Assembly: GCA_964035545.1 (NCBI GenBank)
Contig: OZ037766.1
Span: 744,001 to 808,000 of the forward strand
From: Bugula neritina
Taxonomy: Eukaryota > Animalia > Bryozoa
Length of the DNA stretch: 64,000 nucleotides
Reading direction: 5' to 3'
Position numbers and translations under genes: made by a program
The notes under the pieces: generated by a model
The model's input: only the letters and a program-made list of their open reading frames with translations
Database searches by the model: none
Told to the model about the DNA's origin: nothing
Part shown: positions 16,101 through 62,738 of the stretch, in pieces
Layout: every line of letters begins with the position of its first letter
Numbering within the stretch: position 1 is the stretch's first letter

Positions 16101-19100
16101 TGAATAAAGGCCTGGCCTCACACTCGTGAGAATCACACGGAATCGTCTATTTGACACGAAAACACAATCGTACAATCAAATCTGAGGGAATTCAAATAAA
16201 ATGGTCTTCAGTGGGTGCACCCAACGAAGACAATGGACGAAAAAGCGAAATTAACAATAAGCACTATTCGATTAGTCAATAGAATTTTAGCAACAGTAAT
16301 TATTTCATTTCTACCACGTTTCTCTGTTTGGCAATTTTCAGCTGTTTGTATTTCGTGCAAGACTCATTCAAGGACTATTTATTATGTGTTTCGTCCGACG
16401 AGTGTGTGACTGGTCATAACGAGAGGATAACTCACGAAAATCTTCACATGAGTTTCGTGTGATTCTCACTAGCATGAGGCCAGGCCTTAAAGGCTAAATA
16501 TGAAAACACAGTGCTGTAACAGAGTAGAATGGGGTCTCACCCTGATGGCCAGGCCAAGGGGTATGACATAGGTCAGCCCCATACCCAGACCAAAACACAG
16601 GCCATACGTCAGCAGCAGGAGGTAGTAGCTGACCTTCACTGTGAAGGCCGTCAGGAACACGCTGATACTAAAACACACAGTGCTGATACTAAAACACACA
16701 GTGCTGACACTAAAACACACAATGCTGACACTAAAACACACAATGCTGACACTAAAACACACAATGCTGACACTAAAACACACAATGCTGACACTAAAAC
16801 ATACAATGCTGATACTAAAACATTCAACCTATTCTTCTATGAAATACAAAAGACTAACAGTTGAGTGGCAAGTATTTCAACAAAAAAAATTATTATTTCA
16901 GAATGAGTATTAAAATATTATGGCTCGCGGCCTAAGTAGAATTAGGGCTTTGCTGCTGAAACTAGGCTATATGTTATCAATTGAGAGCTGAGTGCATGTG
17001 TACTAGTACTAGTGTGGTGGCTCGTGGAGCTACCAGCAACACAATACGCAAGGTTGCGTATTGACCCGGAACAATGTATTAGCCAATTAACTAAGCTGTT
17101 TGATAAGTAATAGTAGCCGCTTCGCGCTACTAGCTCAGTTGAGGATAGTGCTGTAAATTAAATAGACGTGCGTATCATTACTGTTGTACCTTAAATTTTA
17201 TTATGTATTCTTGTATTAAAATATAACGATATCTACTCGACTTAACACGGTGAAGTTTCTCTAGTGATAAATAGACTCTCTTGGTGACACATCAACCCTA
17301 AATCTGAAAACTATAACAGTGGTGGCAGCGGTGGGATAGTGTACATTAAAGATGGAGACTGAAAATGCTAGAATGCAACCACCCCCAGTAGAAGGTGAGC
17401 GTAGAAATGCTGTTAATCCTGTAAATCGTGAGGCAGAAGAAGCTTATAGACATTGCTTGAAAGCTCCCACCTTTACTGGGTCGGAAGATGTCGAACAATT
17501 TATACAAGAATTTAGAGAGGTAATGGAGGTTGCTCAATGGCCGCATAGAGTGGCCCTCATTCAATTGCGGAGAGCGGTGACGGAGCAAGCCAAGCCGTAC
17601 GGAGTGGGAACGGACGTGGACGGCATACTGGCTGCGCTGCGGGCCCGTTTTGGCACCTCCGTCATAGACGCTAGGACCAAGCTGGAGAGATTGTGCCGCA
17701 CCCCGCGGACCTCGCTGCAGGAACATGCCGCGACGGTGAAGAAGCTGGCGCAGATTGCATATAGCGATCTGCCAGCACAACACCAAGAGCGTTACACCTA
17801 TGACGCCTTTGTCCAGTCCCTAAACGACCTGGGCCTAGACCATCACCTACGAGCTAAAGGGATAACCAGAATAGAGGATGCCCTGAAGGCTGGAGAAGCT
17901 TACCTGTTGGCTACCCAAATGCATCAGGCACAAAGGAACCCCCCAGTAGTCGGAGTCAGCGCTGCCAGGGCTACGACAGGCTCCGAAGCCCTCCCGCTGG
18001 AAGCCGAAGTGGACCGCATGGTAGAGATGCTGGGACAATTGGTAACCATTCTGGCCAGTGCTGGCCCCGGTCAGGCATTACGGATGCCCCCAACGTCTGT
18101 GGGACAGGGCTGGAGTAGCGCTGATCAGGACCAGGGACCGAAAGGACGACCCCAATACCAGGGGGCGTTAAACTGTCACGGCCCGCGGACACACTCCCTC
18201 CCCGCGGGCCGCAACTAAAGGAGTATGGTGGGAAACGCCGTCGCCTGTCCGTACGGACACGACGGAACGCTCCACCCGAGTGGCAGGTACCACGCAGGAC
18301 TAGTAGGCCCGCACAACGGCCAAGTACCTTCTCCCTGCCACTCACTAACCGGTTTCACCGGTTACCTCGGGAAGAGGAGCCCGCCACTGAAATGGAGCCA
18401 GAAGGCCCAGTGGAGAGGCCCGAACCCCGCCGGCACCAACCTCGCCGCCGGAAGCCCCGTAAACCACGGGTGAAACCCCCGCCGTCCTGTCAACCCAGGA
18501 CAACACATGCGGGGGGGGTGAAAGTACAACCACATGGAGAGAGCTATTTCCTACCCGGAAAGGTGGCCGGCAATGCCGTCACTTTCCTGCTCGACTCCGG
18601 TTGTACTACCAACCTTCTCAGTCGTAGAGTCTTTGAGGCACTGCCCCGCCGGGACAGGGATAGAGTACGACCGTATACTGGAGAACATGGCACCCTGGCA
18701 GACGGGTCATGTATCCCCTTTTATGGTATTATCGAGCTCCCTGGGCGTGTCCGAGATCAGGCTGTACAGGAGACCTTTATCATAGGTCAACTGGAGGAAG
18801 ATGCTATCCTCGGCATGCCCTTCTTGAAGCAACACCAATGCCGAATCGACTTTAGTAAGTCGGTGGTGCTGATGGGCGGGCGAGAACTCGCCTGTGTGGA
18901 TAAGTTTGGGCGTCCTCTGGTGGGCGGTGTTCAGGTAGTTCGGAACTGCACCGTACCCGGACGCTCCAGAGCTACTATCCACTGCCGAGTGAACAGCAAC
19001 CGGATAGCCAGGCTCGGGGTCGTTGAAGGCGCGCACGAAAGGATCCAACTCGCCAGTAGTTTAAACCGACTAACTGAGCGAGGGGAGGTCTTAGTGCAGT

Positions 19101-22100
19101 GTGTCAACCCCTTTACTGAGCCCATTGAGCTCCCAGCTGGGTCAATGCTGGGCCGGTTCCACTCCGTCCAGGAAGAGGACGTGGGCCCGTCGCTGGGTGA
19201 CGCGACGGAGGCACCCCCTCGACACCCTATTCAGGGACGAGGGGCAGTCCCAACACATCTCCGGGAGTTATATGAAACAGCCAGTGGCGGCTGCGCGAGT
19301 AACAGAGAACGCCAAGCTATGGCTAAGTTACTACGCGACTACGGCGATGTGTTCAGCAGCGGAGAGCATGACGTGGGGCTGACTGGAATTGTCAGACACG
19401 AAATACCGCTGACTGCAGGGACAGCTCCTGTCCGGCAGCCCACACGCAGGCTGGGGCCGGAGAAAGAGAAGGAGGTTAGCCGACAAGTACGGGATCTTCT
19501 GGACCGGGGACTGATAGAGCCCGCCCATAGTGCGTGGAGCTCGCCAGTCGTACTGGTCCGGAAGAAAGACGGCAGTTGGCGGTTCTGTGTGGACTACCGC
19601 AAACTCAATAGCGTAACCATACAGGACGCCTACCCTCTACCTCGTATTGACGAGTCATTGGACGCCCTAGCCGGCAGCAAGTACTTCAGTACGTTAGACT
19701 TGCTAAGCGGCTATTGGCAGGTTCCTCTGAGTCCCGACGCCCAAGAGAAAGCGGCGTTTATCACACGGGACGGTTTGTGGAAGTGGAAGGTGCTGCCCTT
19801 CGGGCTAACCTCCGCCCCAGCCACCTTCCAGAGGCTGATGGAACAAGTCCTTAGCGGACTCCATTGGAAGACACTGCTGGTCTACCTCGATGATGTCATC
19901 GTAATCTCTCCAGACTTCGAGACACATGTCAGTCGTCTGCAGGAGGTTTTCGAGAGACTCCGAGGTGCCGGTCTCAAGCTCAAACCTTCCAAATGCGCTC
20001 TATTGCAGCCGGAGGTCAAGTACCTGGGGCACGTTGTCGGTCGAAACGGCGTGGCAACGGATCCCGAAAAGGTACGGGCGGTAGAAGACTGGGTCACCCC
20101 CCAAGACTTGACCGGACTCCGGGCTTTCTTGGGGCTGGTAGGGTATTACAGGCAATACATACCAGACTTTGCGGGCATAGCCCAGCCGTTAAACCGGCTC
20201 ACCGCAAAGGGAGTGACGTGGCAGTGGACCCCAGTCGAACAAGAAGCGTTCGACCGCCTCAAGGGTTGCCTACTAACGGCGCCCATCTTGGCCTACCCAG
20301 ACCCCACTCTGGAGTACATCCTAGACACGGACGCCAGTGACCAGAATGTTGGCGCCGTGCTGTCACAAGTGCAGGAAGGCCGAGAAGTAGTAGTAGCCTA
20401 CTACAGCAAGTCTCTCTCTCCCGCTGAACGAAATTACTGCACTACCCGCAAGGAGCTGCTGGCAGTAATCAAGTCAGTGAAGCACTTCAGACCATACCTA
20501 TATGGCAGGAAGTTCCGGCTGCGTACGGATCATGCCTCGCTGATCTGGTTGTGCAAGAGAGCAGAGCCCTCTAGTCAGGTCGCCCGGTGGCTCGAAATCC
20601 TAGCTGAATTCTCATACCGGATCGAACATCGACCGGGCAAGAGACACAGCAATGCGGATGGGTTGAGTCGCCGACCTGACGGAGGTTGCAAACAGTGTCT
20701 CAACATCGAGAGGAGGGATGGAGGTCCCCCGCGATGCGAGTTGGAGACGCTGGCTCATCACGGAGCACCGTTTGACTGGGATCAAGGTCAACTCAGGCAG
20801 AGAGTTGATGAGTCCCCGGAGGATGTGCAAAACCTCCGCGCCAACCCTGTACTGGCCGGTAATGTTCGAGAGCTGAAGAAGCTCCAAGAAGAACTGCCTG
20901 GAGTCGTGGCAGACATATACCGGGCCAAACGGGAAGGGCGACGACCCAGCGAGGAACGCATAAGACAGGGATGCGCCGAGTTCCGGCTATACTGTCAGCG
21001 TTGGGACTCGCTGCGGATCGGGCAGGATGGGTTGCTAACCATCTCTCTAGCTGCCAGCGGCAGACACCCGGAAAGGAAGAGGGTAGTCTGCCCCACAGCC
21101 ATCCGCCGTGAGTTGATTTGGGATACTCACAAGCAGGCCCACGCAGGGGTCAAGCGAGTGATATCCAAATTACGACTCCGGTGGTATTGGCCGCAGATGG
21201 AGCGTGACGTCCGGCTCAGAGTCAAACAGTGTGAGATCTGCCAGGCCAGTAAGCATAGCCGCCCCCCTGGTGAAGCAGGACGGCGGAGGCTATATGCTGG
21301 CAGGCCCTGGCAAGTAGTCGCTGTAGACCTGGTCGGACCCATGCCCCTGACCCCCAGAGGCAATAATTGGATCCTAGTACTAACCGACCACTTTACTAGG
21401 TGGGCGGATGCTCTGGCCATCCCAGATGCATCAGCCCCAACAGTGGCCAGGGCACTAGACCAACATGTATTCTGTTATTTTGGGCTTCCCGAACAGATAC
21501 ACTCTGATCAAGGCGCTCAATTCCAGTCTCAACTGATGAGCGACCTTTGTCACCTCTGGGGAGTAAATCAGAGCAGGACCACCCCCTACCACCCTCAAGG
21601 TAATGGGGTGGTGGAGCGCAACAACCGAATGCTAGGTGATGCGCTCCGGAGTCTCCTCCTTGGACGAGGTCAAGAGGAATGGGATACGGTGTTGCCACAG
21701 GTCATGCGGGCATACCGTAGCACCCCACACACCAGTACTGGTGAGACCCCAAACCTCTTGATGCTCGGGAGAGAGACTCGTGTCCCTGACCATCTCACCT
21801 ATCACGTTCCCGAGCAAGACAACTCGGTTCACGAGTATGCCAGTGAACTAGTGGAACGGATGAAGGCCGCACACGATATACTGCGTCAACAGCAGTGGAA
21901 GGTGCGGCACGAAGATTCCGATGAACCCCCGCTCTATCAAAGGGGAGATAAGGTGTGGATGGTCAATTACCGTAGGCGCCGCGGACAGGCTGATAAGCTG
22001 AAGCCTAAGTTCGTAGGCCCCTACGTGGTCGTCGAGGCTATGCCCAATCATACGTACAAGATTGAGCGCTCAGGACAGGTGTCTATCCAGAATGAGTCTC

Positions 22101-25100
22101 GCTTGAAACCGTATTGGGCTAGCCCTGACGGAGTGGGAGAAGCCCCCCCGTTGTTAGAGCCCAGGAGGCAGACAACGACGCGCGGGCGACGGCGGCGTGG
22201 ACCTGAATACGAAGTGGTCATACCGCGGGAGGAAAACTTGGTGAGAGAGGAGCGGCAGCTTTTGTCAACAGAAGCGTGTCCGCCGCCGCCAAGTCTAATT
22301 CCATCACTTCCAGAAACCGAGCCGGTTCCGGAAGTGCAAACCCCCACGGAGGGAGGGGCTCCATCCGGAGAACAAGAAGAGGTGACCACTAACGGTGAAG
22401 TAGAGACGCCATTAGAGGCTCCTACTAACGAACCGGCAAGCGTGTCATCCAGAGAACAAGAAGAGGTGACCACTAACGGTGAAGTAGAGACGCCATTAGA
22501 GGCCCCTACTAACGAACCGGCAAGCGTGTCACCCCCCCTAGAAAGGGGACAGCGTACGAGGAAGCCCCCACCGTATTTGAAAGACTTCATATGTGACTGC
22601 ATTAGAAGCGGCGCACATGAAAGTCTAGGGGAAAACCGTACGATGAAATGTTGGAGTTGTGAACCCCACGCAAATATCAACTTTTGCGAGGGCGGAATAG
22701 TGGGAGGAATTAATGCGCGTAAAGCAAATAGTTCCGACCTCGTGCCTCAGAAACGATGCTCAGCCTTTTCTTATGCTGACATCGCCAAAGGCAGACGTAT
22801 CCCACAACCAGCTCCAACCTTACCAAGAACGTTGAGTATGGACATTAATACCGAGTTCTCAGGTAAGCCAGTATAAGTCTTGTATTCCTATTCATGGAAA
22901 CGGGCTCGATGCCAGTAAATTCTGAACTAATTCAGCAGATTGAATCAGAATTACTGGGAACCACGTTTCATGTGAATGACGATGAAGACACTGTAATGGC
23001 CGACGGTCTTTTAGACCTGGAGCTAGACACTGTTCTTGGTCAGTCCACACATGATTCATCAGTTCCTCGAGTGCATTCCAAAAGCTGTGACTCTCAGGCT
23101 AGCAACGGTCGACAGTCACTAGAATTATGTTGTAAAGATCCACCGCGATCTAACAATAATTCTACTTTTGTAGACACACTCGCGCCCGTCTCTACGGGCA
23201 TGCCTTCTCTAGAGATGGCGTGGGACCCAGAGCCGGCCCCAACAACTCCTACCACCAGGCAACTGCCACCTCAGTTGGAAGCAACCTCCAACTGGATTAC
23301 CCCTGCCACAGAGAGGGAAATCAGGACCCATCAAGGAGGTGAGAGTAATCGTGAATGCAACCTCTGCCAGCAGCGATTCACAACCCACCGCAGACTAAAG
23401 GTGCACTTGCCGCAGCATTACATCACCACTTTCTGCCCTTGCGGCGAATATAGCTATAACCGTGATTATCTGCTGCGGCACCAACGTACTATGCAGTGCT
23501 ATCAAGGACATGTCTATGAAGTAGACGAATCATCCTATCCTGCCTTTCTCAACGCCATTAAACCACTCATCACTGACTCAGCTCGGCTATCTCGCCTGGA
23601 GCAAGGCTTCCCTTCCCCGCGACCTATCACCTCTGGAGCTACAGATAAACCTACCCAGTCTGCTAACTCTCCACCTCACAGTCCTATACGCATGCCGCAT
23701 ACCTTTCCTCGTGTCGTACTACAGAGAGTAGACACAAATGCGTACACACTCCCTCCTCCTATTCCATCCTCAGAGCGGAAACGACACAGGCAACCAACTT
23801 CCTCTCGCTCGTCCCCCTGGGCCCGTAACCTACGTGAGGTAGAAGCTAGGGCGCATGACTTGGAGCAAGAAGTCTACAGGCTGGCCCCACGAATACAAGC
23901 AGCCTCCAGTGAACTCAAATACTTACAGGAGTCGATTAAACGCATGAAGCGTGCGGCCCGCAATTAACTCGAGTCTACCTACCACTCCCTACTACTCATT
24001 CCCCTACCTCTCTGTGGCATTCCCTACCGTAATGGTGGCACGTACTCTATATGTAGATAGGACCTTCTCTTGCTTATTACTTAGTGCACGATATATATAC
24101 CTGTATATTTTTTTTACCAGTTGTTGTTTTTTTTTTATATATATTATATACTTTTATATTGTTCTCTTACCCCCCAACGAAGTATACGTTTTTTTTTGTG
24201 AATCTTATTTTATCAGAAAGTGGGCTTTCTGCTGGAGGGGGCAGTGTGGTGGCTCGTGGAGCTACCAGCAACACAATACGCAAGGTTGCGTATTGACCCG
24301 GAACAATGTATTAGCCAATTAACTAAGCTGTTTGATAAGTAATAGTAGCCGCTTCGCGCTACTAGCTCAGTTGAGGATAGTGCTGTAAATTAAATAGACG
24401 TGCGTATCATTACTGTTGTACCTTAAATTTTATTATGTATTCTTGTATTAAAATATAACGATATCTACTCGACTTAACACGGTGAAGTTTCTCTAGTGAT
24501 AAATAGACTCTCTTGGTGACACATCAACCCTAAATCTGAAAACTATAACACTAGCATATGCTATCAGTCTCAAAAAGCACAGTGAAGACACGGTAAGCAG
24601 CTAAGGACTAGAAAGACACCAGCTGCATGAGGATGGCTTCGTATCAATCGATAAGAATAATAAATTACTAACTCATCCTCAACTCTCTCTATAAAATGGC
24701 ATAATTAGGTAACATAAATCAATTATAATCACTATTTCACACCAGCCATGGGAATATTACAATACCTCAATTCACAGTATAATATTAGGCAATAGTACTA
24801 TAGACTAAATACAGCCCAGTAGGATATTCAGATACATCTTTATACTCTGTATACTCTACTCTGTATATTCTGTATATTCTACTCTGTATATTCTACTCTG
24901 TATACTCTACTCTGTATACCCTACTCTGTATACTCTACTCTCTATACTCTCTACTCTGTATACTCTGTATACTCTACTCTGTACACTCTACTCTGTATAT
25001 TCTACTCTGTATACTCTACTCTGTATACTCTGTATACTCTGTATACTCTACTCTGTATACTCTGTATACTCTACTCTGTATACTATACTCTGTATACTAT

Positions 25101-26141: not shown

Positions 26142-27248
26142 ACTCTCAGACTATAGTTTGAAGTTTCAGCAGCTGTAAGCAAGTTCTAGCTAAAATAGGA
26201 AAATATAATATAGTGTGGTTAAAATAGTAAGAGTTGAATGTGTTACATATGAATTGTATTTATGATAATGACATGTACATAATAAAACCTTAGTGGGATT
26301 ATGGTTATTCCAGATATGAAATTAATCGGAAACAATTTAGTTCAAAAATGTCCAAGCAGTAAACCTAGAACCCCAGACTATTATCACAGAAAGGCAGAAT
26401 ATTGCCAGCTGATTTACCATATAGGTACACCCTGTGGATTAACTTTACTCAAAATGAAGTGTTTGAGAAGGCTCAACTGTCCCTAGGGTTCGAACCCAAT
26501 TAAATGGAAAATATTTAAAATTATTTTACATCTCACTACATAGAAAAATGATAACTATATTATATGCAGGCAGAATACATATTACTTTACTATTAATATT
26601 AGAAGATTAGCATTGGATTTTACCCAAACTATTATTATTCTTAGCTGGGATGTAATTACAACTATTGTTATAGTTTTCAGATTTAGGGTTGATGTGTCAC
26701 CAAGAGAGTCTATTTATCACTAGAGAAACTTCACCGTGTTAAGTCGAGTAGATATCGTTATATTTTAATACAAGAATACATAATAAAATTTAAGGTACAA
26801 CAGTAATGATACGCACGTCTATTTAATTTACAGCACTATCCTCAACTGAGCTAGTAGCGCGAAGCGGCTACTATTACTTATCAAACAGCTTAGTTAATTG
26901 GCTAATACATTGTTCCGGGTCAATACGCAACCTTGCGTATTGTGTTGCTGGTAGCTCCACGAGCCACCACACTGCCCCCTCCAGCAGAAAGCCCACTTTC
27001 TGATAAAATAAGATTCACAAAAAAAAACGTATACTTCGTTGGGGGGTAAGAGAACAATATAAAAGTATATAATATATATAAAAAAAAAACAACAACTGGT
27101 AAAAAAAATATACAGGTATATATATCGTGCACTAAGTAATAAGCAAGAGAAGGTCCTATCTACATATAGAGTACGTGCCACCATTACGGTAGGGAATGCC
27201 ACAGAGAGGTAGGGGAATGAGTAGTAGGGAGTGGTAGGTAGACTCGAG

Positions 27249-28322
27249 TTAATTGCGGGCCGCACGCTTCATGCGTTTAATCGACTCCTGTAAGTATTTG
27301 AGTTCACTGGAGGCTGCTTGTATTCGTGGGGCCAGCCTGTAGACTTCTTGCTCCAAGTCATGCGCCCTAGCTTCTACCTCACGTAGGTTACGGGCCCAGG
27401 GGGACGAGCGAGAGGAAGTTGGTTGCCTGTGTCGTTTCCGCTCTGAGGATGGAATAGGAGGAGGGAGTGTGTACGCATTTGTGTCTACTCTCTGTAGTAC
27501 GACACGAGGAAAGGTATGCGGCATGCGTATAGGACTGTGAGGTGGAGAGTTAGCAGACTGGGTAGGTTTATCTGTAGCTCCAGAGGTGATAGGTCGCGGG
27601 GAAGGGAAGCCTTGCTCCAGGCGAGATAGCCGAGCTGAGTCAGTGATGAGTGGTTTAATGGCGTTGAGAAAGGCAGGATAGGATGATTCGTCTACTTCAT
27701 AGACATGTCCTTGATAGCACTGCATAGTACGTTGGTGCCGCAGCAGATAATCACGGTTATAGCTATATTCGCCGCAAGGGCAGAAAGTGGTGATGTAATG
27801 CTGCGGCAAGTGCACCTTTAGTCTGCGGTGGGTTGTGAATCGCTGCTGGCAGAGGTTGCATTCACGATTACTCTCACCTCCTTGATGGGTCCTGATTTCC
27901 CTCTCTGTGGCAGGGGTAATCCAGTTGGAGGTTGCTTCCAACTGAGGTGGCAGTTGCCTGGTGGTAGGAGTTGTTGGGGCCGGCTCTGGGTCCCACGCCA
28001 TCTCTAGAGAAGGCATGCCCGTAGAGACGGGCGCGAGTGTGTCTACAAAAGTAGAATTATTGTTAGATCGCGGTGGATCTTTACAACATAATTCTAGTGA
28101 CTGTCGACCGTTGCTAGCCTGAGAGTCACAGCTTTTGGAATGCACTCGAGGAACTGATGAATCATGTGTGGACTGACCAAGAACAGTGTCTAGCTCCAGG
28201 TCTAAAAGACCGTCGGCCATTACAGTGTCTTCATCGTCATTCACATGAAACGTGGTTCCCAGTAATTCTGATTCAATCTGCTGAATTAGTTCAGAATTTA
28301 CTGGCATCGAGCCCGTTTCCAT
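27249..28322 (-). CDS. ORF3 zinc-finger/coiled-coil protein, element B
   Basis: Translation identical to 22894-23967. Confidence 0.9.
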   Translation of the reverse strand: METGSMPVNSELIQQIESELLGTTFHVNDDEDTVMADGLLDLELDTVLGQSTHDSSVPRVHSKSCDSQASNGRQSLELCCKDPPRSNNNSTFVDTLAPVSTGMPSLEMAWDPEPAPTTPTTRQLPPQLEATSNWITPATEREIRTHQGGESNRECNLCQQRFTTHRRLKVHLPQHYITTFCPCGEYSYNRDYLLRHQRTMQCYQGHVYEVDESSYPAFLNAIKPLITDSARLSRLEQGFPSPRPITSGATDKPTQSANSPPHSPIRMPHTFPRVVLQRVDTNAYTLPPPIPSSERKRHRQPTSSRSSPWARNLREVEARAHDLEQEVYRLAPRIQAASSELKYLQESIKRMKRAARN

Positions 28323-28339
28323 GAATAGGAATACAAGAC

Positions 28340-31300
28340 TTATACTGGCTTACCTGAGAACTCGGTATTAATGTCCATACTCAACGTTCTTGGTAAGGTT
28401 GGAGCTGGTTGTGGGATACGTCTGCCTTTGGCGATGTCAGCATAAGAAAAGGCTGAGCATCGTTTCTGAGGCACGAGGTCGGAACTATTTGCTTTACGCG
28501 CATTAATTCCTCCCACTATTCCGCCCTCGCAAAAGTTGATATTTGCGTGGGGTTCACAACTCCAACATTTCATCGTACGGTTTTCCCCTAGACTTTCATG
28601 TGCGCCGCTTCTAATGCAGTCACATATGAAGTCTTTCAAATACGGTGGGGGCTTCCTCGTACGCTGTCCCCTTTCTAGGGGGGGTGACACGCTTGCCGGT
28701 TCGTTAGTAGGGGCCTCTAATGGCGTCTCTACTTCACCGTTAGTGGTCACCTCTTCTTGTTCTCTGGATGACACGCTTGCCGGTTCGTTAGTAGGAGCCT
28801 CTAATGGCGTCTCTACTTCACCGTTAGTGGTCACCTCTTCTTGTTCTCCGGATGGAGCCCCTCCCTCCGTGGGGGTTTGCACTTCCGGAACCGGCTCGGT
28901 TTCTGGAAGTGATGGAATTAGACTTGGCGGCGGCGGACACGCTTCTGTTGACAAAAGCTGCCGCTCCTCTCTCACCAAGTTTTCCTCCCGCGGTATGACC
29001 ACTTCGTATTCAGGTCCACGCCGCCGTCGCCCGCGCGTCGTTGTCTGCCTCCTGGGCTCTAACAACGGGGGGGCTTCTCCCACTCCGTCAGGGCTAGCCC
29101 AATACGGTTTCAAGCGAGACTCATTCTGGATAGACACCTGTCCTGAGCGCTCAATCTTGTACGTATGATTGGGCATAGCCTCGACGACCACGTAGGGGCC
29201 TACGAACTTAGGCTTCAGCTTATCAGCCTGTCCGCGGCGCCTACGGTAATTGACCATCCACACCTTATCTCCCCTTTGATAGAGCGGGGGTTCATCGGAA
29301 TCTTCGTGCCGCACCTTCCACTGCTGTTGACGCAGTATATCGTGTGCGGCCTTCATCCGTTCCACTAGTTCACTGGCATACTCGTGAACCGAGTTGTCTT
29401 GCTCGGGAACGTGATAGGTGAGATGGTCAGGGACACGAGTCTCTCTCCCGAGCATCAAGAGGTTTGGGGTCTCACCAGTACTGGTGTGTGGGGTGCTACG
29501 GTATGCCCGCATGACCTGTGGCAACACCGTATCCCATTCCTCTTGACCTCGTCCAAGGAGGAGACTCCGGAGCGCATCACCTAGCATTCGGTTGTTGCGC
29601 TCCACCACCCCATTACCTTGAGGGTGGTAGGGGGTGGTCCTGCTCTGATTTACTCCCCAGAGGTGACAAAGGTCGCTCATCAGTTGAGACTGGAATTGAG
29701 CGCCTTGATCAGAGTGTATCTGTTCGGGAAGCCCAAAATAACAGAATACATGTTGGTCTAGTGCCCTGGCCACTGTTGGGGCTGATGCATCTGGGATGGC
29801 CAGAGCATCCGCCCACCTAGTAAAGTGGTCGGTTAGTACTAGGATCCAATTATTGCCTCTGGGGGTCAGGGGCATGGGTCCGACCAGGTCTACAGCGACT
29901 ACTTGCCAGGGCCTGCCAGCATATAGCCTCCGCCGTCCTGCTTCACCAGGGGGGCGGCTATGCTTACTGGCCTGGCAGATCTCACACTGTTTGACTCTGA
30001 GCCGGACGTCACGCTCCATCTGCGGCCAATACCACCGGAGTCGTAATTTGGATATCACTCGCTTGACCCCTGCGTGGGCCTGCTTGTGAGTATCCCAAAT
30101 CAACTCACGGCGGATGGCTGTGGGGCAGACTACCCTCTTCCTTTCCGGGTGTCTGCCGCTGGCAGCTAGAGAGATGGTTAGCAACCCATCCTGCCCGATC
30201 CGCAGCGAGTCCCAACGCTGACAGTATAGCCGGAACTCGGCGCATCCCTGTCTTATGCGTTCCTCGCTGGGTCGTCGCCCTTCCCGTTTGGCCCGGTATA
30301 TGTCTGCCACGACTCCAGGCAGTTCTTCTTGGAGCTTCTTCAGCTCTCGAACATTACCGGCCAGTACAGGGTTGGCGCGGAGGTTTTGCACATCCTCCGG
30401 GGACTCATCAACTCTCTGCCTGAGTTGACCTTGATCCCAGTCAAACGGTGCTCCGTGATGAGCCAGCGTCTCCAACTCGCATCGCGGGGGACCTCCATCC
30501 CTCCTCTCGATGTTGAGACACTGTTTGCAACCTCCGTCAGGTCGGCGACTCAACCCATCCGCATTGCTGTGTCTCTTGCCCGGTCGATGTTCGATCCGGT
30601 ATGAGAATTCAGCTAGGATTTCGAGCCACCGGGCGACCTGACTAGAGGGCTCTGCTCTCTTGCACAACCAGATCAGCGAGGCATGATCCGTACGCAGCCG
30701 GAACTTCCTGCCATATAGGTATGGTCTGAAGTGCTTCACTGACTTGATTACTGCCAGCAGCTCCTTGCGGGTAGTGCAGTAATTTCGTTCAGCGGGAGAG
30801 AGAGACTTGCTGTAGTAGGCTACTACTACTTCTCGGCCTTCCTGCACTTGTGACAGCACGGCGCCAACATTCTGGTCACTGGCGTCCGTGTCTAGGATGT
30901 ACTCCAGAGTGGGGTCTGGGTAGGCCAAGATGGGCGCCGTTAGTAGGCAACCCTTGAGGCGGTCGAACGCTTCTTGTTCGACTGGGGTCCACTGCCACGT
31001 CACTCCCTTTGCGGTGAGCCGGTTTAACGGCTGGGCTATGCCCGCAAAGTCTGGTATGTATTGCCTGTAATACCCTACCAGCCCCAAGAAAGCCCGGAGT
31101 CCGGTCAAGTCTTGGGGGGTGACCCAGTCTTCTACCGCCCGTACCTTTTCGGGATCCGTTGCCACGCCGTTTCGACCGACAACGTGCCCCAGGTACTTGA
31201 CCTCCGGCTGCAATAGAGCGCATTTGGAAGGTTTGAGCTTGAGACCGGCACCTCGGAGTCTCTCGAAAACCTCCTGCAGACGACTGACATGTGTCTCGAA

Positions 31301-32824
31301 GTCTGGAGAGATTACGATGACATCATCGAGGTAGACCAGCAGTGTCTTCCAATGGAGTCCGCTAAGGACTTGTTCCATCAGCCTCTGGAAGGTGGCTGGG
31401 GCGGAGGTTAGCCCGAAGGGCAGCACCTTCCACTTCCACAAACCGTCCCGTGTGATAAACGCCGCTTTCTCTTGGGCGTCGGGACTCAGAGGAACCTGCC
31501 AATAGCCGCTTAGCAAGTCTAACGTACTGAAGTACTTGCTGCCGGCTAGGGCGTCCAATGACTCGTCAATACGAGGTAGAGGGTAGGCGTCCTGTATGGT
31601 TACGCTATTGAGTTTGCGGTAGTCCACACAGAACCGCCAACTGCCGTCTTTCTTCCGGACCAGTACGACTGGCGAGCTCCACGCACTATGGGCGGGCTCT
31701 ATCAGTCCCCGGTCCAGAAGATCCCGTACTTGTCGGCTAACCTCCTTCTCTTTCTCCGGCCCCAGCCTGCGTGTGGGCTGCCGGACAGGAGCTGTCCCTG
31801 CAGTCAGCGGTATTTCGTGTCTGACAATTCCAGTCAGCCCCACGTCATGCTCTCCGCTGCTGAACACATCGCCGTAGTCGCGTAGTAACTTAGCCATAGC
31901 TTGGCGTTCTCTGTTACTCGCGCAGCCGCCACTGGCTGTTTCATATAACTCCCGGAGATGTGTTGGGACTGCCCCTCGTCCCTGAATAGGGTGTCGAGGG
32001 GGTGCCTCCGTCGCGTCACCCAGCGACGGGCCCACGTCCTCTTCCTGGACGGAGTGGAACCGGCCCAGCATTGACCCAGCTGGGAGCTCAATGGGCTCAG
32101 TAAAGGGGTTGACACACTGCACTAAGACCTCCCCTCGCTCAGTTAGTCGGTTTAAACTACTGGCGAGTTGGATCCTTTCGTGCGCGCCTTCAACGACCCC
32201 GAGCCTGGCTATCCGGTTGCTGTTCACTCGGCAGTGGATAGTAGCTCTGGAGCGTCCGGGTACGGTGCAGTTCCGAACTACCTGAACACCGCCCACCAGA
32301 GGACGCCCAAACTTATCCACACAGGCGAGTTCTCGCCCGCCCATCAGCACCACCGACTTACTAAAGTCGATTCGGCATTGGTGTTGCTTCAAGAAGGGCA
32401 TGCCGAGGATAGCATCTTCCTCCAGTTGACCTATGATAAAGGTCTCCTGTACAGCCTGATCTCGGACACGCCCAGGGAGCTCGATAATACCATAAAAGGG
32501 GATACATGACCCGTCTGCCAGGGTGCCATGTTCTCCAGTATACGGTCGTACTCTATCCCTGTCCCGGCGGGGCAGTGCCTCAAAGACTCTACGACTGAGA
32601 AGGTTGGTAGTACAACCGGAGTCGAGCAGGAAAGTGACGGCATTGCCGGCCACCTTTCCGGGTAGGAAATAGCTCTCTCCATGTGGTTGTACTTTCACCC
32701 CCCCCGCATGTGTTGTCCTGGGTTGACAGGACGGCGGGGGTTTCACCCGTGGTTTACGGGGCTTCCGGCGGCGAGGTTGGTGCCGGCGGGGTTCGGGCCT
32801 CTCCACTGGGCCTTCTGGCTCCAT
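28340..32824 (-). CDS. pol: Pol polyprotein, element B
   Basis: Translation identical to copy A. Confidence 0.98.
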   Translation of the reverse strand: MEPEGPVERPEPRRHQPRRRKPRKPRVKPPPSCQPRTTHAGGVKVQPHGESYFLPGKVAGNAVTFLLDSGCTTNLLSRRVFEALPRRDRDRVRPYTGEHGTLADGSCIPFYGIIELPGRVRDQAVQETFIIGQLEEDAILGMPFLKQHQCRIDFSKSVVLMGGRELACVDKFGRPLVGGVQVVRNCTVPGRSRATIHCRVNSNRIARLGVVEGAHERIQLASSLNRLTERGEVLVQCVNPFTEPIELPAGSMLGRFHSVQEEDVGPSLGDATEAPPRHPIQGRGAVPTHLRELYETASGGCASNRERQAMAKLLRDYGDVFSSGEHDVGLTGIVRHEIPLTAGTAPVRQPTRRLGPEKEKEVSRQVRDLLDRGLIEPAHSAWSSPVVLVRKKDGSWRFCVDYRKLNSVTIQDAYPLPRIDESLDALAGSKYFSTLDLLSGYWQVPLSPDAQEKAAFITRDGLWKWKVLPFGLTSAPATFQRLMEQVLSGLHWKTLLVYLDDVIVISPDFETHVSRLQEVFERLRGAGLKLKPSKCALLQPEVKYLGHVVGRNGVATDPEKVRAVEDWVTPQDLTGLRAFLGLVGYYRQYIPDFAGIAQPLNRLTAKGVTWQWTPVEQEAFDRLKGCLLTAPILAYPDPTLEYILDTDASDQNVGAVLSQVQEGREVVVAYYSKSLSPAERNYCTTRKELLAVIKSVKHFRPYLYGRKFRLRTDHASLIWLCKRAEPSSQVARWLEILAEFSYRIEHRPGKRHSNADGLSRRPDGGCKQCLNIERRDGGPPRCELETLAHHGAPFDWDQGQLRQRVDESPEDVQNLRANPVLAGNVRELKKLQEELPGVVADIYRAKREGRRPSEERIRQGCAEFRLYCQRWDSLRIGQDGLLTISLAASGRHPERKRVVCPTAIRRELIWDTHKQAHAGVKRVISKLRLRWYWPQMERDVRLRVKQCEICQASKHSRPPGEAGRRRLYAGRPWQVVAVDLVGPMPLTPRGNNWILVLTDHFTRWADALAIPDASAPTVARALDQHVFCYFGLPEQIHSDQGAQFQSQLMSDLCHLWGVNQSRTTPYHPQGNGVVERNNRMLGDALRSLLLGRGQEEWDTVLPQVMRAYRSTPHTSTGETPNLLMLGRETRVPDHLTYHVPEQDNSVHEYASELVERMKAAHDILRQQQWKVRHEDSDEPPLYQRGDKVWMVNYRRRRGQADKLKPKFVGPYVVVEAMPNHTYKIERSGQVSIQNESRLKPYWASPDGVGEAPPLLEPRRQTTTRGRRRRGPEYEVVIPREENLVREERQLLSTEACPPPPSLIPSLPETEPVPEVQTPTEGGAPSGEQEEVTTNGEVETPLEAPTNEPASVSSREQEEVTTNGEVETPLEAPTNEPASVSPPLERGQRTRKPPPYLKDFICDCIRSGAHESLGENRTMKCWSCEPHANINFCEGGIVGGINARKANSSDLVPQKRCSAFSYADIAKGRRIPQPAPTLPRTLSMDINTEFSGKPV

Positions 32825-32997
32825 TTCAGTGGCGGGCTCCTCTTCCCGAGGTAACCGGTGAAACCGGTTAGTGAGTGGCAGGGAGAAGGTACTTGGCCGT
32901 TGTGCGGGCCTACTAGTCCTGCGTGGTACCTGCCACTCGGGTGGAGCGTTCCGTCGTGTCCGTACGGACAGGCGACGGCGTTTCCCACCATACTCCT

Positions 32998-33864
32998 TTA
33001 GTTGCGGCCCGCGGGGAGGGAGTGTGTCCGCGGGCCGTGACAGTTTAACGCCCCCTGGTATTGGGGTCGTCCTTTCGGTCCCTGGTCCTGATCAGCGCTA
33101 CTCCAGCCCTGTCCCACAGACGTTGGGGGCATCCGTAATGCCTGACCGGGGCCAGCACTGGCCAGAATGGTTACCAATTGTCCCAGCATCTCTACCATGC
33201 GGTCCACTTCGGCTTCCAGCGGGAGGGCTTCGGAGCCTGTCGTAGCCCTGGCAGCGCTGACTCCGACTACTGGGGGGTTCCTTTGTGCCTGATGCATTTG
33301 GGTAGCCAACAGGTAAGCTTCTCCAGCCTTCAGGGCATCCTCTATTCTGGTTATCCCTTTAGCTCGTAGGTGATGGTCTAGGCCCAGGTCGTTTAGGGAC
33401 TGGACAAAGGCGTCATAGGTGTAACGCTCTTGGTGTTGTGCTGGCAGATCGCTATATGCAATCTGCGCCAGCTTCTTCACCGTCGCGGCATGTTCCTGCA
33501 GCGAGGTCCGCGGGGTGCGGCACAATCTCTCCAGCTTGGTCCTAGCGTCTATGACGGAGGTGCCAAAACGGGCCCGCAGCGCAGCCAGTATGCCGTCCAC
33601 GTCCGTTCCCACTCCGTACGGCTTGGCTTGCTCCGTCACCGCTCTCCGCAATTGAATGAGGGCCACTCTATGCGGCCATTGAGCAACCTCCATTACCTCT
33701 CTAAATTCTTGTATAAATTGTTCGACATCTTCCGACCCAGTAAAGGTGGGAGCTTTCAAGCAATGTCTATAAGCTTCTTCTGCCTCACGATTTACAGGAT
33801 TAACAGCATTTCTACGCTCACCTTCTACTGGGGGTGGTTGCATTCTAGCATTTTCAGTCTCCAT
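32998..33864 (-). CDS. gag: Gag, element B
   Basis: Translation identical to copy A. Confidence 0.9.
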   Translation of the reverse strand: METENARMQPPPVEGERRNAVNPVNREAEEAYRHCLKAPTFTGSEDVEQFIQEFREVMEVAQWPHRVALIQLRRAVTEQAKPYGVGTDVDGILAALRARFGTSVIDARTKLERLCRTPRTSLQEHAATVKKLAQIAYSDLPAQHQERYTYDAFVQSLNDLGLDHHLRAKGITRIEDALKAGEAYLLATQMHQAQRNPPVVGVSAARATTGSEALPLEAEVDRMVEMLGQLVTILASAGPGQALRMPPTSVGQGWSSADQDQGPKGRPQYQGALNCHGPRTHSLPAGRN

Positions 33865-36264
33865 CTTTAATGTACACTATCCCACCGCTGCCACCACTGT
33901 TATAGTTTTCAGATTTAGGGTTGATGTGTCACCAAGAGAGTCTATTTATCACTAGAGAAACTTCACCGTGTTAAGTCGAGTAGATATCGTTATATTTTAA
34001 TACAAGAATACATAATAAAATTTAAGGTACAACAGTAATGATACGCACGTCTATTTAATTTACAGCACTATCCTCAACTGAGCTAGTAGCGCGAAGCGGC
34101 TACTATTACTTATCAAACAGCTTAGTTAATTGGCTAATACATTGTTCCGGGTCAATACGCAACCTTGCGTATTGTGTTGCTGGTAGCTCCACGAGCCACC
34201 ACACTATTACTTATTTACTATAACAATAATGTATAAACTAACATCTTGATTAGTTGTTCTAAATCCTAATTCTTTGAGTTTCTTGCTTTTGTAAGCACTT
34301 TGGTTTTTAAATTACAAATGATAAATCTGTTTACTATTAGGTATGTATGATATTAGACATAGTAGCCTACCGCATTAACTATAACTACAACTATAATATT
34401 AACATAATATGTTGATGTATAAGAAACTGAACAGTGGTGACATCAGAATAGCTGATCAAAAATAAAATAAGCTTTCATCTCTCTATTACTATTAGCATTA
34501 CAAATTTGATTTACTTTTAAAATTAATGACTGAAAGGAACAAATGTTAATGTAAACATCTTAATGTGAGTGAATACTGAACAGGTACTTACCCTTAACAT
34601 TGGCTTTGTAATTTGTAGTTATGCCAATACTTTAACTGGTAGATGCTTCTGTATGCAATTTGAATTAAAACGCAAACTGAAACTGCACAATCACTCTGAC
34701 AAATCGCACTGAGTATGACACTGACAGTCACAGCGTGAGTGAGTGCAGTAGATTGAACGGCAACAACTATGATTTATTAGTAACACTATAGGCATAAGTT
34801 GTTGAATAAGTAAAACAATTTAAATTACTCATTTAGTCGAAATTTTGAAAATCAAAATGAATAACTATAACTACATGTATAAGTCATTTAATTTTATGAT
34901 TTAAGTGCACTGTACTGGTAATTCACTAATTGCTACTAGCCAAAGGTAACTACAGGCTATAAGTATAAGTATATATGATATGAGTACATCATAATCGCAG
35001 ACTAAAAGTAAATCTACAATATTTGTAAAATACTGGTAAACTCAACACACATTCGTCATAACTCATAGTAATCAATTGCTACATTTAGTGCAAATGTGCA
35101 TTCTGGAACAGCTGTGTAAACAGCTAGCCAGGGGGTGAAAGGTTAAAAGGGTAAACAAACCATACATATGACTATTCTAATACCAATAAGCTGAAAATCG
35201 CTAGAAGTAGCACCAAGTTAGGGGTGACTAATTACATACTTTGTATAAACTATAGAGCATTAACAACCTCGAGACCGCCACCAACACTGCACTAAATGAC
35301 CACCATCTTTACGCTGCTTCGAGCGATTTCGTAACATAGTCGTGTACATAATTGTGATTGCCTCCTAAGTTGTTCAACTGCAACTGCTAAGTAATAGTTT
35401 AAGTAAAAGAACACACTGGTCAACTGTAGGGAAAAACTAGATACATGGGCATATAACTCATAATTAGTTTTTAAATTATTTTTCAGGCTACAAAAAATGA
35501 AGAAGATTTAGTATTAATACATGCATGCATCATGTCGTTACAAGTGCTTATTTCCTAAGTTTATTGTAACAGAGCAACTGTTGAACTGGTGACTGAAATC
35601 CACTAGTCTAATACTATACAGGCACTAAGTAGGATATACTAGATTCTAGATGAATGAGAAACCATAAACTACTCATCGAATGGTTGACATTTGCAAACTT
35701 GTGGAAATTATTGGTGAATTTTCTTAAATATAACTATATTATGGACATTAACAAAATATAACAAATTTTCAATTGAAATAATAATAATAATAGTGGAATC
35801 AACATGAATTAATATAAATTTCAACAAATCCCTTTTCCTTAATGTTGACAAAAACAGAGAGAATCAAAATAAAATATTGTTTAGTAACTTCAGCATATCG
35901 TGAATAAGAACTGATATGAATTATAAAGTCGCTAGTTTACTAGGTAGTTTAAGTATTCAGTAATCTCGAATTGATTAACCACACTTGTATAACAAACAGT
36001 GAATATAAATCCTACTTAGCATACTTAACAATGTGTTAATATATCTCAAGGACAGACAGTAGATGAAAATAACTCATAACTCTATTTTGCACAAAAATTA
36101 TTAAACAAAAATATATTACACTACAAAAAAGTAATAACAAAAAATATCTAGTAGAGAGAAAGGAATGCTTACGGAATCATCGAGAATATTAGATATAATG
36201 TTATAGAGTTATTGTAGCACCAGAAAAATATTGCTTTTACAACTTTTTCATTTATTTCTTCTAC

Positions 36265-39200
36265 CTAGACGAGTTTTCCATTAGCCCGTCTCGCATTGAA
36301 TGTCAGACTGAGAACAAAGGCTACAAAGCAGCAGAACACAACTCTCAATATCGTCATAGTCGAGCCAAAACATTGGAACATTACACAGAGTAACTACTGC
36401 ATAGAGTTGTGTCCTCTTGTACTTATATAAATAATAGTCATGGAGTTGTCTTCCATCATCTCACTGAAGTTAGATATGAGCTACACAAACAGTATTGACA
36501 TTTAAAGTGTATATAATATTATATACTTACATATAAATGATAAACCAGCCGATAGAATGAATATCCCGTAAGAATGTAACTTCTGAAGTAGAAAAGTGCT
36601 GAGTAGTGCTCCTATTGGCCCAGCCACTGCCTACGGAGGGATGATGCAATACAACATTATAGAAAGACATGGGTCTACTAATTATACCAGCGCAAGAGTT
36701 CTTCAGATAATTTAAGCCACACTTACCGAGGAGGTGAAGAGAACCCCGTAGTTTATGGAAACGTATTGAGGGCCAAAAGTCTTAGCAATGGCAGTAGGAA
36801 ATAAAGAGAAATTCCCAGAGAATGTCATAAAGATGAGACAAATCCAAACAAAGAGTAGAGGTTTCCCAGCTGACTCGGCAAATACGTGAGTAATGTAAAG
36901 AGAAGCCATGAGGCAAGTCATTGCAGAGGTGAGTGTGACGATGGCAGCCTACAGTACGGCAGCATGACTCAGAGTCAGCAGGTCATATTGACTGGTTTAT
37001 ACAGGTAATATATGGTACATATTAACTGGTTTATACAGGTAATATATGGTACATATCAACTGGTTTATACAGGTAATATATGGTACATATTAACTGGTTT
37101 ATACAGGTAATATATGGTACATATCAAGTGGTTTATACAGGTAATATATGGTACATATCAACTGGTTTATACAGGTAATATATGGTACATATCAACTGGT
37201 TTATACAGGTAATATATGGTACATATCAACTGGTTTATACAGATAATATATGGTACATATTACCTGGTTTATACAGGTAATATATGGTACATATCAACTG
37301 GTTTATACAGGTAATATATGGTACATATCAACTGGTTTATACAGGTAATATATGGTACATATTAACTGGTTTATACAGGTAATAATCTATGACTCACCTT
37401 GAAAGAAACTTTGTCAGCAAACAACCCCCATATTATCCTCCCGACAGCATTGCATACGGCAGCAGCAGAGCCGAGAGTGGATAAAAACCGGTCATCATTG
37501 ACGACCTCACTCTCCCCGTACGTCTTGTACAGAGTGGATATGAACAGCACACACACTGCATTCAGCAGAAACATGAACCATAGAGTAATAAAGTGCCGTG
37601 TCTTTACCATCTCTCTTGGTGACATACTGGATACTGGGTGAGACCCCCTAAGGGCTGGAGTCTCCCCCTCCTCACTACAGATAAACAAGTAGATCACAGT
37701 CTAGCTTGCTGTCACACCATACTGTGTACAGGATAAACAAATAACTACTCAATACTGAACACCACTGACTATTTATAGCAAACTTTCTTAGTTTAAATTA
37801 CCACTTCAATCCTAAGAAATGTGAATAAGGAACTAATTGTATGTCACAAGACACCAAGGCAGAAGGGCATATACTATAGAGGGGGAATACCCAGTGGATA
37901 GCGGAGGTTCTGTTATTAGAGCCTGTGCTTCTTCCTTTCTCATGTTAGTGCGAGATTTGACTGGAAACAGTAGCATAACTCCAACAACTTGCAGGGCCGC
38001 ATAGCAGCCACCCAACAGCATGAACATGTTAGGAACTGAGTCTAGAATGGAGTCGTCATTGAAGTACCTGCAGGAAATGAGGTAGTACAGGAAATGAGAT
38101 AGTACAGGAAATGAGATAGTTACTACAGGAAATGAGACAGTTACTACAGGAAATGAGATAGTCAGTACAGGAAATAAGATAGTACAGGAAACGAGATAGT
38201 CCCAGCTTACTTGTCATTCCCGATATTCTGAGTAGTGTTCAGTTCTTTAGCCCCAACGGCCTTGACATTGTGAGGATTCAGGAAGGCTGTTTGCACTTGA
38301 TCAAATATAAACGCCCCACCTCCAAATCCTGCCACAATAAACCCATTGGCTATACCCTTGTGTTCAGGAAACCACTGGAGAGTAAATCATTTTATCATCA
38401 GATTGATGAGATTCAGAAAGGTACACACGTCTGCACGGGTAGATTCAGTTCTCAAGTTCTGATTGGTACAAGAATAAAACTCACACTCATGGCTACAGAC
38501 ATTGGTGGAGCATAAGCTATGCCGATACCAACTCCAAACATAACACCATACGTTACTAGAAACAGGTAATAACTAACTCGGATTGTAAACGCAGAGAGAA
38601 ATACTCCTAAACTGAAAATAGAGAAATAGGAACAGCTGTTACTATAAATGGAAAAATAGGAACAGCTGTTACTATAAATAAAATTAGAACAAAACTAGAG
38701 ATTTCATACCCTGAAAAGTTAAAATATAAAAACAAGAAACACAATGCCGTTTGGTAATCATTTGCAAAAATTTTAAATAATGAAAAAAACTTCAAATCTT
38801 TTCACAAACAGTTTTATACACAGAGGGCAGTAATCATAGAGTATATTGCCTGCAGCAGACACAGAAATAGACTGTAACCTTGTGGTTAGACCTCCGATTA
38901 AAGTAGCAAGTCGGGTGCCAATCCTCTTCTCTAGGATTCCCCCGAGAAACATGGCTAAGCCTTGTCCAGTCACGGCCAGAGCAAACACCCAAACCGTATC
39001 CCCGTACCGCAGTGTCGTGGGCTGGGAGGAGCGCCTTATGTAGGACGTTACGTAAGGGTTGATGTTACCTACAGGACGTTACGTAAAGGTTGATGTATAA
39101 ACCAAACAACAAACTATAAATTAAAAGCTTCATTCTACAGAAAAAACAACAACTATGTTCATTCAAAGAGAAATGTATTAGAGCTACAACTATTACTTAT

Positions 39201-39988: not shown

Positions 39989-40323
39989 TCTCAGTAGTGT
40001 ATCTCTACAACAGAGTTAGTGAGTAGAGCAGAGAAGGTTTAGTCATCCTTTCATCAAGACAAATAATATGGAGAGATGATTAGCAGTAAAATAGTTGCAT
40101 ATTATATTATGGAAAACTTTATGAAGACTTTATGAAATGCTATATAAATAGTATAACGTATTACTATATTACTACAATACTATATTACTATATTACTACA
40201 ATACTGTATTACTACAATACTGTAATACTACAATACTGTATTACTGTAATACTATAACTACATTATTGAGAAGCAAATCACTAGACTAATAGCTCACACA
40301 TAGCAAATAACAAACTAGATAAT

Positions 40324-62532: not shown

Positions 62533-62738
62533 CACACCCCCTATCGGAAAGCGTGCTTTCCGATACGAGGGCGAATAATAACATAATAACAATGAGACGG
62601 ACAATAAACAAAACAAAAAAAAACAGAAGAGAGAGAACAAAGAAACAAAACAAAACAAAACATCAAGTACATAGTATAAGGGGCAACGAATATGTATAAC
62701 AGAGAATTGTCATGCCACCAGTCAGGGAGAGGCGGGTC

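Follow-up and report, generated by a model that had tools for sequence, protein, structure and literature searches.

Two complete and identical retrotransposons face each other across coding exons 1 and 2 of a host gene in a 64,000-nucleotide stretch of DNA from the bryozoan Bugula neritina (hereafter, the window). This arrangement raises the question of how the pair arose and what it would mean for the gene and for the element family. We favour, with a probability of about 0.62, separate integrations of two intact Ty3/Gypsy copies around exons 1 and 2 of an MFS transporter gene (MFS1), both from one active source, which by chance hit the same chromosome at a distance of 2.1 kb while the family was expanding. 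The observation is real and mostly ordinary.

An inverted pair of Ty3/Gypsy elements

Sequence comparison identified window positions 17013–24550 as the reverse complement of 26666–34203, with 0 mismatches over 7,538 bp. The first interval is element A, which lies on the plus strand in intron 2 of MFS1, antisense to the host gene. The identical element B is on the minus strand and host-sense, upstream of the exon-1 acceptor and within a likely 5′-UTR intron. The spacer between them (24551–26665, 2,115 bp) contains coding exons 1 and 2 and, within intron 2, a 620-bp tandem array with a 14-bp period (24843–25462). A sequence-only reading of this DNA had described the mirror copies and their spacer, and both are exact in the window. 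A perfect match of 7.5 kb is far above chance as sequence, and two copies of one young element would explain it.

Direct comparison of the LTRs showed that all four are identical and 306 bp long, beginning with TG and ending with CA (A, 17013–17318 and 24245–24550 on the plus strand; B, 33898–34203 for the 5′ LTR and 26666–26971 for the 3′ LTR on the minus strand). Read on the plus strand, target-site duplications (TSDs) of CTAG lie on both sides of A (17009–17012 and 24551–24554) and of CTAT on both sides of B (26662–26665 and 34204–34207), with one CTAT in the empty allele of B. Because each copy's TSD is matched on both sides, the spacer is un-inverted, as the sequence-only reading had proposed. 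Exons 1, 2 and 3 are collinear. Its further claim of two separate, very recent insertions is borne out by the distinct matched TSDs and by the empty B allele.

An inverted spacer with exchanged TSDs, as in the eri-6/7 locus of Caenorhabditis elegans, is absent from the window, where TSD pairing and exon order are normal. In eri-6/7, several Polinton copies flank an exon block, and ectopic recombination between inverted Polintons has been proposed as the origin of the exon inversion (PMC11414722). Both loci carry several copies of one transposon within a gene, flanking exons. The elements are Polintons there and LTR elements here, however; there the inversion took place and is repaired by trans-splicing (PMC11414722), whereas TSD pairing and exon order exclude it in the window.

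A and B combine TG…CA direct LTRs, the domain order protease, reverse transcriptase, RNase H and integrase, a 4-bp TSD at both copies, and primer-binding-site-like and polypurine sequences, and on these sequence features we class them as intact Ty3/Gypsy elements. The primer-binding-site-like stretch of A (17320–17337, plus strand) begins with TGG one base past the LTR and is presumably a tRNA-Leu match; the window holds no tRNA gene. A polypurine tract (24234–24244, plus strand) directly precedes the 3′ LTR. The open reading frame (ORF) in the gag position (17352–18218; mirrored in B at 33864–32998) encodes 288 amino acids with no Pfam family match. The pol frame, shifted by −1 with respect to gag, is open for 1,583 codons and has a PR-RT-RH-IN-SH3 order (18125–22876; mirror 33091–28340); its product matches Pfam families for reverse transcriptase (residues 478–637), RNase H (701–829) and integrase (990–1157), together with a protease match at 144–236 that is below the Pfam cut-off (E 4e-4). 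Pol relatives are 52–73% identical, and the named ones are from animals. No chromodomain appears among the 12 Pfam families matched by Pol at E 0.1, which sets the elements apart from chromoviruses. With non-chromovirus Ty3/Gypsy lineages of animals they share the LTR termini, the primer-binding-site-like and polypurine sites, the 4-bp TSD and the domain order; they differ in a separate third ORF (ORF3), with a C2H2-like module and a long C-terminal helix, in place of env or a chromodomain.

State of the insertion allele

A public 1,202-nt contig from sequencing run X1 (depth 102.9) places its letters 1–847 on 25820–26666 and its letters 842–1202 on 34203–34563. The contig thus reads through an empty B site that has one CTAT, which makes B a genuine insertion and a polymorphic one. 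An X5 contig likewise ends its match at 26666 and continues for 1,272 letters. The filled B junction is seen in none of the public contigs aligned to the region, and the right flank of B in X1 is covered only by the empty-site contig (bin 34223–34315, depth 102.9), a pattern that speaks against the preferred reading, as X1 seems to share the window's alleles close by, although contig building can lose junctions of this kind. The insertion allele is probably young and unfixed.

The assembly places A and B on one haplotype, and the window depends on that one assembly. The two could instead be real heterozygous insertions on different haplotypes, joined through the spacer and perhaps polished alike, in which case no chromosome would carry an inverted repeat. 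Such a merge would accommodate the empty B allele, the matched TSDs and the tandem array inside the spacer, and a collapsed repeat would give the same perfect identity. Against it, the haplotypes of X1 differ at intervals of a few dozen bases, and differences at this spacing usually keep haplotypes separate in haplotype-aware assemblies. One allele is identical to the window in all three of the listed X1 two-allele pairs, inside the spacer and to the right of B, and the window appears to follow the lower-depth allele on both stretches. A haplotype switch would therefore have few places to fall other than 24551–25611, about 1 kb beside A, with phase deduced from unphased contigs. We judged the reduced depth of the window allele within the spacer (43, versus 56 outside) to be noise, and we excluded four element positions where every listed X1 contig departs from the window, since contigs drop minority variants. 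We consider a merge unlikely, and two insertions on one chromosome remain the preferred reading.

Host gene and predicted fate of its transcript

All MFS1 exons discussed here are on the minus strand. Exon 1 (26063–26189) has its ATG at 26141 (coding part 26141–26063) and its acceptor AG at 26191–26190; exon 2 (25478–25667) and exon 3 (16541–16667), the latter on the far side of A, are placed by a spliced contig and the gene model. Exons 1 and 2 splice in frame to exon 3 beyond A, and the frame is open across eight coding exons, giving approximately 470–480 amino acids in a gene model that leaves the ends of exons 4–8 unfixed. The host exon pattern was absent from metagenome contigs.

The spliced contig (688 nt, X10) joins exon 1 to exon 2, ends loosely in exon-3 letters and extends for 192 letters past the exon-1 acceptor with no fit elsewhere in 25470–33890; because it runs past this acceptor, B is likely to lie in a 5′-UTR intron. 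It comes from a diverged lineage, with alleles in common with X2 and X5, and is uninformative on the insertion allele, and X10, X9 and X15 are labelled as RNA by guess. The sequence-only reading had put B in intron 1 by way of a donor near 34591. Use of the exon-1 acceptor strengthens the placement, and the donor itself remains a motif-based candidate (34586–34594, minus strand, predicted intron start 34591), the sole GT[AG]AG donor on that strand within 34204–35900. Contigs of the three guessed-RNA runs give no cover at 34223–34873, and the 688-nt contig could not be placed on 34130–36900 at 90% likeness; as that lineage is only about 90–95% alike outside coding exons, the blank is no evidence against the donor. 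A start site inside the spacer, where there is one weaker donor at 26536, is unlikely. The regions upstream of the two MFS paralogs showed no likeness (best E 0.14).

A host transcript would first traverse B, in the sense orientation, and later A, in the antisense one. Splicing geometry, seen in a lineage without sign of the insertions, would permit one transcript across both arms, with poly(A)-type hexamers of the LTRs en route. A hexamer scan found ATTAAA in both LTRs of B, which is co-oriented with the host gene (34059 and 34001 in the 5′ LTR; 26827 and 26769 in the 3′ LTR), and AATAAA on the host-sense strand of A at 24434, 117 nt after the transcript enters the element. A full 7.5-kb duplex would thus need read-through of several such signals and would have to outrun splicing of intron 1. 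These signals could also cut the host transcript short, and we expect that the majority of transcripts would be spliced normally or truncated at them. A minor fraction might fold into double-stranded RNA (dsRNA) or back-splice into a predicted 317-nt circle of exons 1 and 2, the setting for which is present: complementary repeats in both flanking introns and an upstream acceptor in use. Later recombination between the arms could flip the two exons.

Inverted Alu pairs share opposed repeats in introns that flank exons, an arrangement conducive to dsRNA formation, A-to-I editing and back-splicing (PMC11263572); Alu elements are short and diverged, whereas the arms here are 7.5 kb long, perfect and supplied with promoters and poly(A)-type signals of their own. 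In maize, Mu killer derives by rearrangement from one DNA transposon, duplicated portions of which are joined, and dsRNA and silencing were demonstrated for it (PMC1563492). An inverted duplication of element sequence is likewise present in the assembly, and inverted transposon copies could in both cases be read as one hairpin RNA; here, however, the copies are complete and autonomous and lie 2.1 kb apart in different introns, and the hairpin is a prediction.

By analogy with such pairs, for which silencing, circles and inversion are known, hairpin silencing from A and B is possible. In its strongest form, a multi-kilobase duplex would form between A and B within host transcripts, and its small RNAs would silence the whole family in trans. 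The perfect complementarity of the arms, the use of the exon-1 acceptor, which lets one primary transcript span both copies, and the convergent orientation, in which read-through from either element could also yield duplex RNA, are compatible with a working silencer, and Mu killer provides a precedent in which long dsRNA from an inverted duplication silences MuDR (PMC1563492). We nevertheless doubt it strongly. Poly(A)-type signals stand in both B LTRs and early in A; the intron-1 acceptor would be transcribed 1.6 kb before A, such that B could be spliced out first; the allele is probably unfixed; and in Drosophila lone euchromatic insertions suffice for piRNAs and endo-siRNAs (PMC3916259), so a pair may be nothing exceptional. 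A bolder version seems just as improbable: an animal counterpart of Mu killer at its birth, in which host read-through of two complete autonomous copies on one chromosome would produce a several-kilobase duplex that initiates silencing while the family is expanding, with exons 1 and 2 primed for circularization or inversion and an undescribed zinc-finger module that may choose AGTA(C/A)TAG-like targets.

Under the preferred reading of two chance integrations, the allele is probably mildly harmful and short-lived, and not an evolved silencing locus. If the pair lies on one chromosome, it would be a clean natural test allele with carriers and non-carriers, given the empty B allele. It could show whether a transcribed animal gene that contains such a perfect, multi-kilobase inverted pair produces small RNAs or circles or undergoes editing or inversion, and whether any such effect would slow an expanding family. 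On present evidence, the pair is an expected outcome of a retrotransposon burst.

Family size, targeting and the third reading frame

A 128-nt element contig with one difference has a depth of 9,337, against 105–119 for host DNA, which gives a rough estimate of 80–90 copies. The probability of at least one inverted pair within 2,115 bp is 0.03–0.38 per genome for 90–300 copies and an assumed 200–300 Mb, with genome size and copy number both rough. A close pair can thus arise without local targeting at the apparent copy number, and the suggestion that two hits within about 2 kb hint at such targeting is weakened. If only about 20 copies were mutually identical, the chance would fall to 0.001–0.002, and a causal link or a collapsed consensus would be favoured.

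ORF3 (22894–23967, plus strand; mirror 28322–27249) encodes 357 amino acids, with a C2H2-like zinc-finger module at approximately residues 121–240 and a long C-terminal helix. A linked origin, with the second copy directed here by sequence or chromatin, possibly through this module, or with neighbours homogenized by gene conversion between the arms, is the least probable account. In its favour, the two insertion sites share seven of the eight upstream bases (AGTA[C/A]TAG; chance 0.0007–0.0008 for a fixed window, picked post hoc), seven X1 contigs (four rows, among the matches listed) diverge just 4–8 bases beyond the LTR end, as other insertions with similar flanks would in an alignment that favours such contigs, and the module is integrase-fused in some Pol relatives. 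Against it, 47 kb of host DNA contain 23 occurrences of the motif, indicating sequence preference and not locality; the identity of the 5′ and 3′ LTRs is enough to show that each copy is young, with no need of conversion; and a targeting role for ORF3 would be hypothetical.

ORF3, a conserved zinc-finger and coiled-coil frame, had been overlooked in the sequence-only reading and is the component for which an earlier description is least likely. A search that reached titles and the starts of abstracts, thin on subscription papers, returned no description of a Gypsy element with an extra C2H2 ORF, and searches of metagenome and viral contigs gave no ORF3 loci. In X2 and X5, cover at 90% likeness is missing from stretches of both ORF3 and gag, which we do not read as absence. 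The Pfam zf-C2H2 match is weak (E 0.022, below the cut-off); Foldseek places C2H2 fingers in its top rows, but with a best E of only 0.44; Atlas neighbours that have a family are C2H2 (0.87–0.89); and a VIA-align search matched the C-terminal helix only (Z at most 5.4). In a 17-sequence alignment, C155, H171, H175, C181 and C183 are invariant and C158, H196 and C202 almost so. A 3′-end accessory protein or module is shared with CERV of Cer1, an accessory cysteine-containing protein, and with chromodomains fused to integrase (PMC10309623, PMC2774666). ORF3 looks C2H2-like and not of the C4 type of CERV (PMC10309623), and, in contrast to the integrase-fused chromodomains (PMC2774666), its module is free in A and B; among 120 Pol relatives, 21 have it fused downstream of integrase.

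Paired insertions around the first coding exons of MFS1

Self-comparison of the window showed that the reverse complement of 26666-34203 (copy B, minus strand) is identical to 17013-24550 (copy A, plus strand), with 0 mismatches over 7538 bp and a spacer of 2115 bp, confirming the perfect mirror-image copies described in the sequence-only reading. They are Ty3/Gypsy LTR retrotransposons. The 306-bp LTRs begin with TG, end with CA and are identical in 4/4 instances. Provided that the assembly did not homogenise them, zero differences bound divergence, by the rule of three, to <1% for the LTRs and <0.04% for the copies. Target-site duplications (TSDs) match on both sides of each copy, CTAG for A and CTAT for B. 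Because recombination inside the arms would swap the flanks, these pairs bear out a spacer in its original orientation. Both copies contain an in-frame 84-bp tandem duplication near the end of pol (22362-22531 in A).

The B site also occurs without its insertion. A 1202-nt contig from sequencing run X1 (depth 102.9) is the empty B allele: letters 1-847 lie on 25820-26666 and letters 842-1202 on 34203-34563, the six letters common to both parts comprising a single CTAT and one chance match on each side. The single CTAT shows that integration made the duplication, and the empty allele in X1 that B is polymorphic; insertion polymorphism was among the checks proposed earlier. An X5 contig also ends at 26666 and then continues. 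With matched TSDs for each copy, 0 differences and an empty B allele, the pair is best explained by two recent insertions that occurred independently, as previously suggested; the Gypsy family to which they belong is abundant. The arrangement is present in the sequence and is of a kind already known.

Matched TSDs are also compatible with two heterozygous insertions on different haplotypes joined by the assembler, an alternative that we consider unlikely. Judged by its depth, the empty-site contig could represent a homozygous site or a heterozygous one whose alleles were merged, and X1 contigs at intermediate depth (79, 82) resemble merged alleles. X1 is heterozygous, with one allele equal to the window in 3/3 listed allele pairs (25612-25746, 34534-34663 and 34734-34923), so it may be the source sample and thus not independent of the assembly. 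The filled right junction of B was not among the X1 contigs, which show presence rather than absence. Against a merger, the window keeps the same lower-depth allele in the spacer and to the right of B, which, as an unphased inference, would place a switch only in the ~1 kb adjoining A.

Local targeting of the second copy, hinted at earlier from the proximity of the insertions, may have played a part but is not required. One contig of the element, carrying a single difference, reaches a depth of 9337 versus 105-119 for host DNA, suggesting ~80-90 copies, although depth is a poor measure of copy number. Assuming a 200-300 Mb genome, one or more inverted pairs no further than 2115 bp apart would arise with a probability of 0.03-0.38 at 90-300 copies, and 0.001-0.002 with only 20 identical copies. 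The upstream flanks of A and B (17005-17012 and 34204-34211; AGTA(C/A)TAG in element orientation) are alike at 7/8 bases, for which chance gives 0.0007-0.0008 in a fixed window, here picked after the fact. Host DNA holds 23 instances of the motif in 47 kb, so that it reflects at most a common sequence preference; seven X1 contigs that depart 4-8 bases beyond the end of the LTR agree with this, with a bias from contig placement. By eye, the LTR holds a 12-base match to the flank of B plus its first base.

Host transcript and predicted consequences

MFS1, a minus-strand MFS transporter gene, has exons 1, 2 and 3 at 26141-26063, 25667-25478 and 16667-16541, with GT-AG boundaries and an in-frame translation. 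Downstream exons permit open frames of ~470-480 aa with ends not fixed, and individual exons match MFS_1 weakly. A lies antisense in intron 2, and B in sense upstream of exon 1. A 688-nt contig of X10, a guessed RNA run, has exon 1 spliced to exon 2 and a loose end of exon-3 letters. It departs exactly at the AG preceding exon 1 and continues for 192 letters that have no other place in 25470-33890, indicating use of this acceptor and the existence of a non-coding exon further upstream, which most likely lies on the far side of B. The proposed position of B in intron 1 is thereby made likely; the location of that exon was not found in 34130-36900 at 90% likeness. X10 has alleles in common with X2 and X5, which are diverged runs, and so reports the basic structure of MFS1 rather than the behaviour of the insertion allele. 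In the tandem paralog MFS2, an acceptor likewise directly precedes the ATG, by eye. Contigs from 2 and 3 guessed-RNA runs skip two introns of this paralog (~36263-39990, minus strand), which lies upstream of the interrupted MFS1 and might compensate if the latter is lost.

From this layout, a host transcript would cross both LTRs of B in sense, then exons 1-2, and then enter A. It would encounter candidate poly(A)-type signals in B and A, namely host-sense ATTAAA in the LTRs of B (34059, 34001, 26827 and 26769) and AATAAA at 24434, 117 nt into A. The intron-1 acceptor would be transcribed 1.6 kb ahead of A, so B could be removed before its complement exists. Since A and B are convergent, read-through from either may form duplex RNA without a host promoter. 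The likely outcome is a mixture in which most host transcripts are normal or cut short and some RNA is duplex, possibly with a 317-nt circle, and flipping of exons 1-2 would be a standing risk. Each of these steps (splicing, duplex, circle and flip) is a prediction from the layout.

For maize Mu killer, itself an inverted duplication, dsRNA and silencing have been demonstrated (PMC1563492), and it shares geometry alone with this locus; in animals, dsRNA, editing and circles commonly arise from inverted Alus (PMC11263572); and single euchromatic insertions in flies already yield piRNA and endo-siRNA (PMC3916259). The exon inversion at eri-6/7 has been proposed to result from ectopic recombination involving several Polinton insertions (PMC11414722), and the present locus resembles the state prior to that inversion. 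If confirmed on one chromosome, so perfect and large a pair would be a good test allele.

The element and its third open reading frame

The element has a 288-aa gag-position ORF with no Pfam family and a pol frame of 1583 codons encoding protease (weak), RT, RNase H, integrase and SH3 in Gypsy order; chromodomain is absent among the 12 Pfam families found in Pol. The gag/pol overlap (18125-18218) is in the -1 frame, and no classical slippery heptamer was found within it. Next to the 5' LTR lies a PBS-like stretch starting with TGG, presumably fitting tRNA-Leu; a purine run directly precedes the 3' LTR. Of 7966 candidates scored for Pol, 6846 matched at E 1e-100; the best of 120 listed relatives is 73% identical, and the named ones are all animal, which makes an animal host probable.

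An intact ORF3 of 357 aa (22894-23967, plus strand, in A; 28322-27249, minus strand, in B) separates pol from the 3' LTR. Among 1775 candidates, 59 are homologs, mostly 45-58% identical and one 73%. A profile built from the query and 16 of these gave 316 matches at E 0.001, and its alignment shows Cys and His residues that are invariant or almost so. The predicted model comprises a confident domain at ~121-240 and a long C-terminal helix. Fold comparisons make a C2H2 assignment tentative: Foldseek returned C2H2 fingers as best rows (E 0.44 or worse), VIA-align matched the helix alone, and Atlas neighbours with an assigned family are C2H2 proteins (0.87-0.89). Within the 120 listed Pol relatives, the profile matches the C-terminal part of 21 (E 4e-23 to 4e-5), downstream of integrase and SH3 in 3/3 checked. 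The module, free here and integrase-fused in some relatives, occupies in the latter a position reminiscent of the chromodomain (PMC2774666), from which one may reasonably guess at a part in targeting or regulation. This conserved, putative zinc-finger/coiled-coil ORF3 is the likeliest part of the locus to lack an earlier description.

An ORF3 relative (41% over 155 aa) occurs at 63413-62976 (minus strand) in a different, related element, whose 3' end at ~62186-64000 (minus strand) is cut by the window end and also holds a purine run and an LTR-like stretch with a CA end near 62186. Elsewhere, inverted GATC-rich ends of ~60 bp surround ~760 bp at ~40325-41095, MITE-like by eye. Simple tandem arrays occupy many introns of the window; those at 24843-25462 and 7189-7638 are alike in inverted orientation (~67%).
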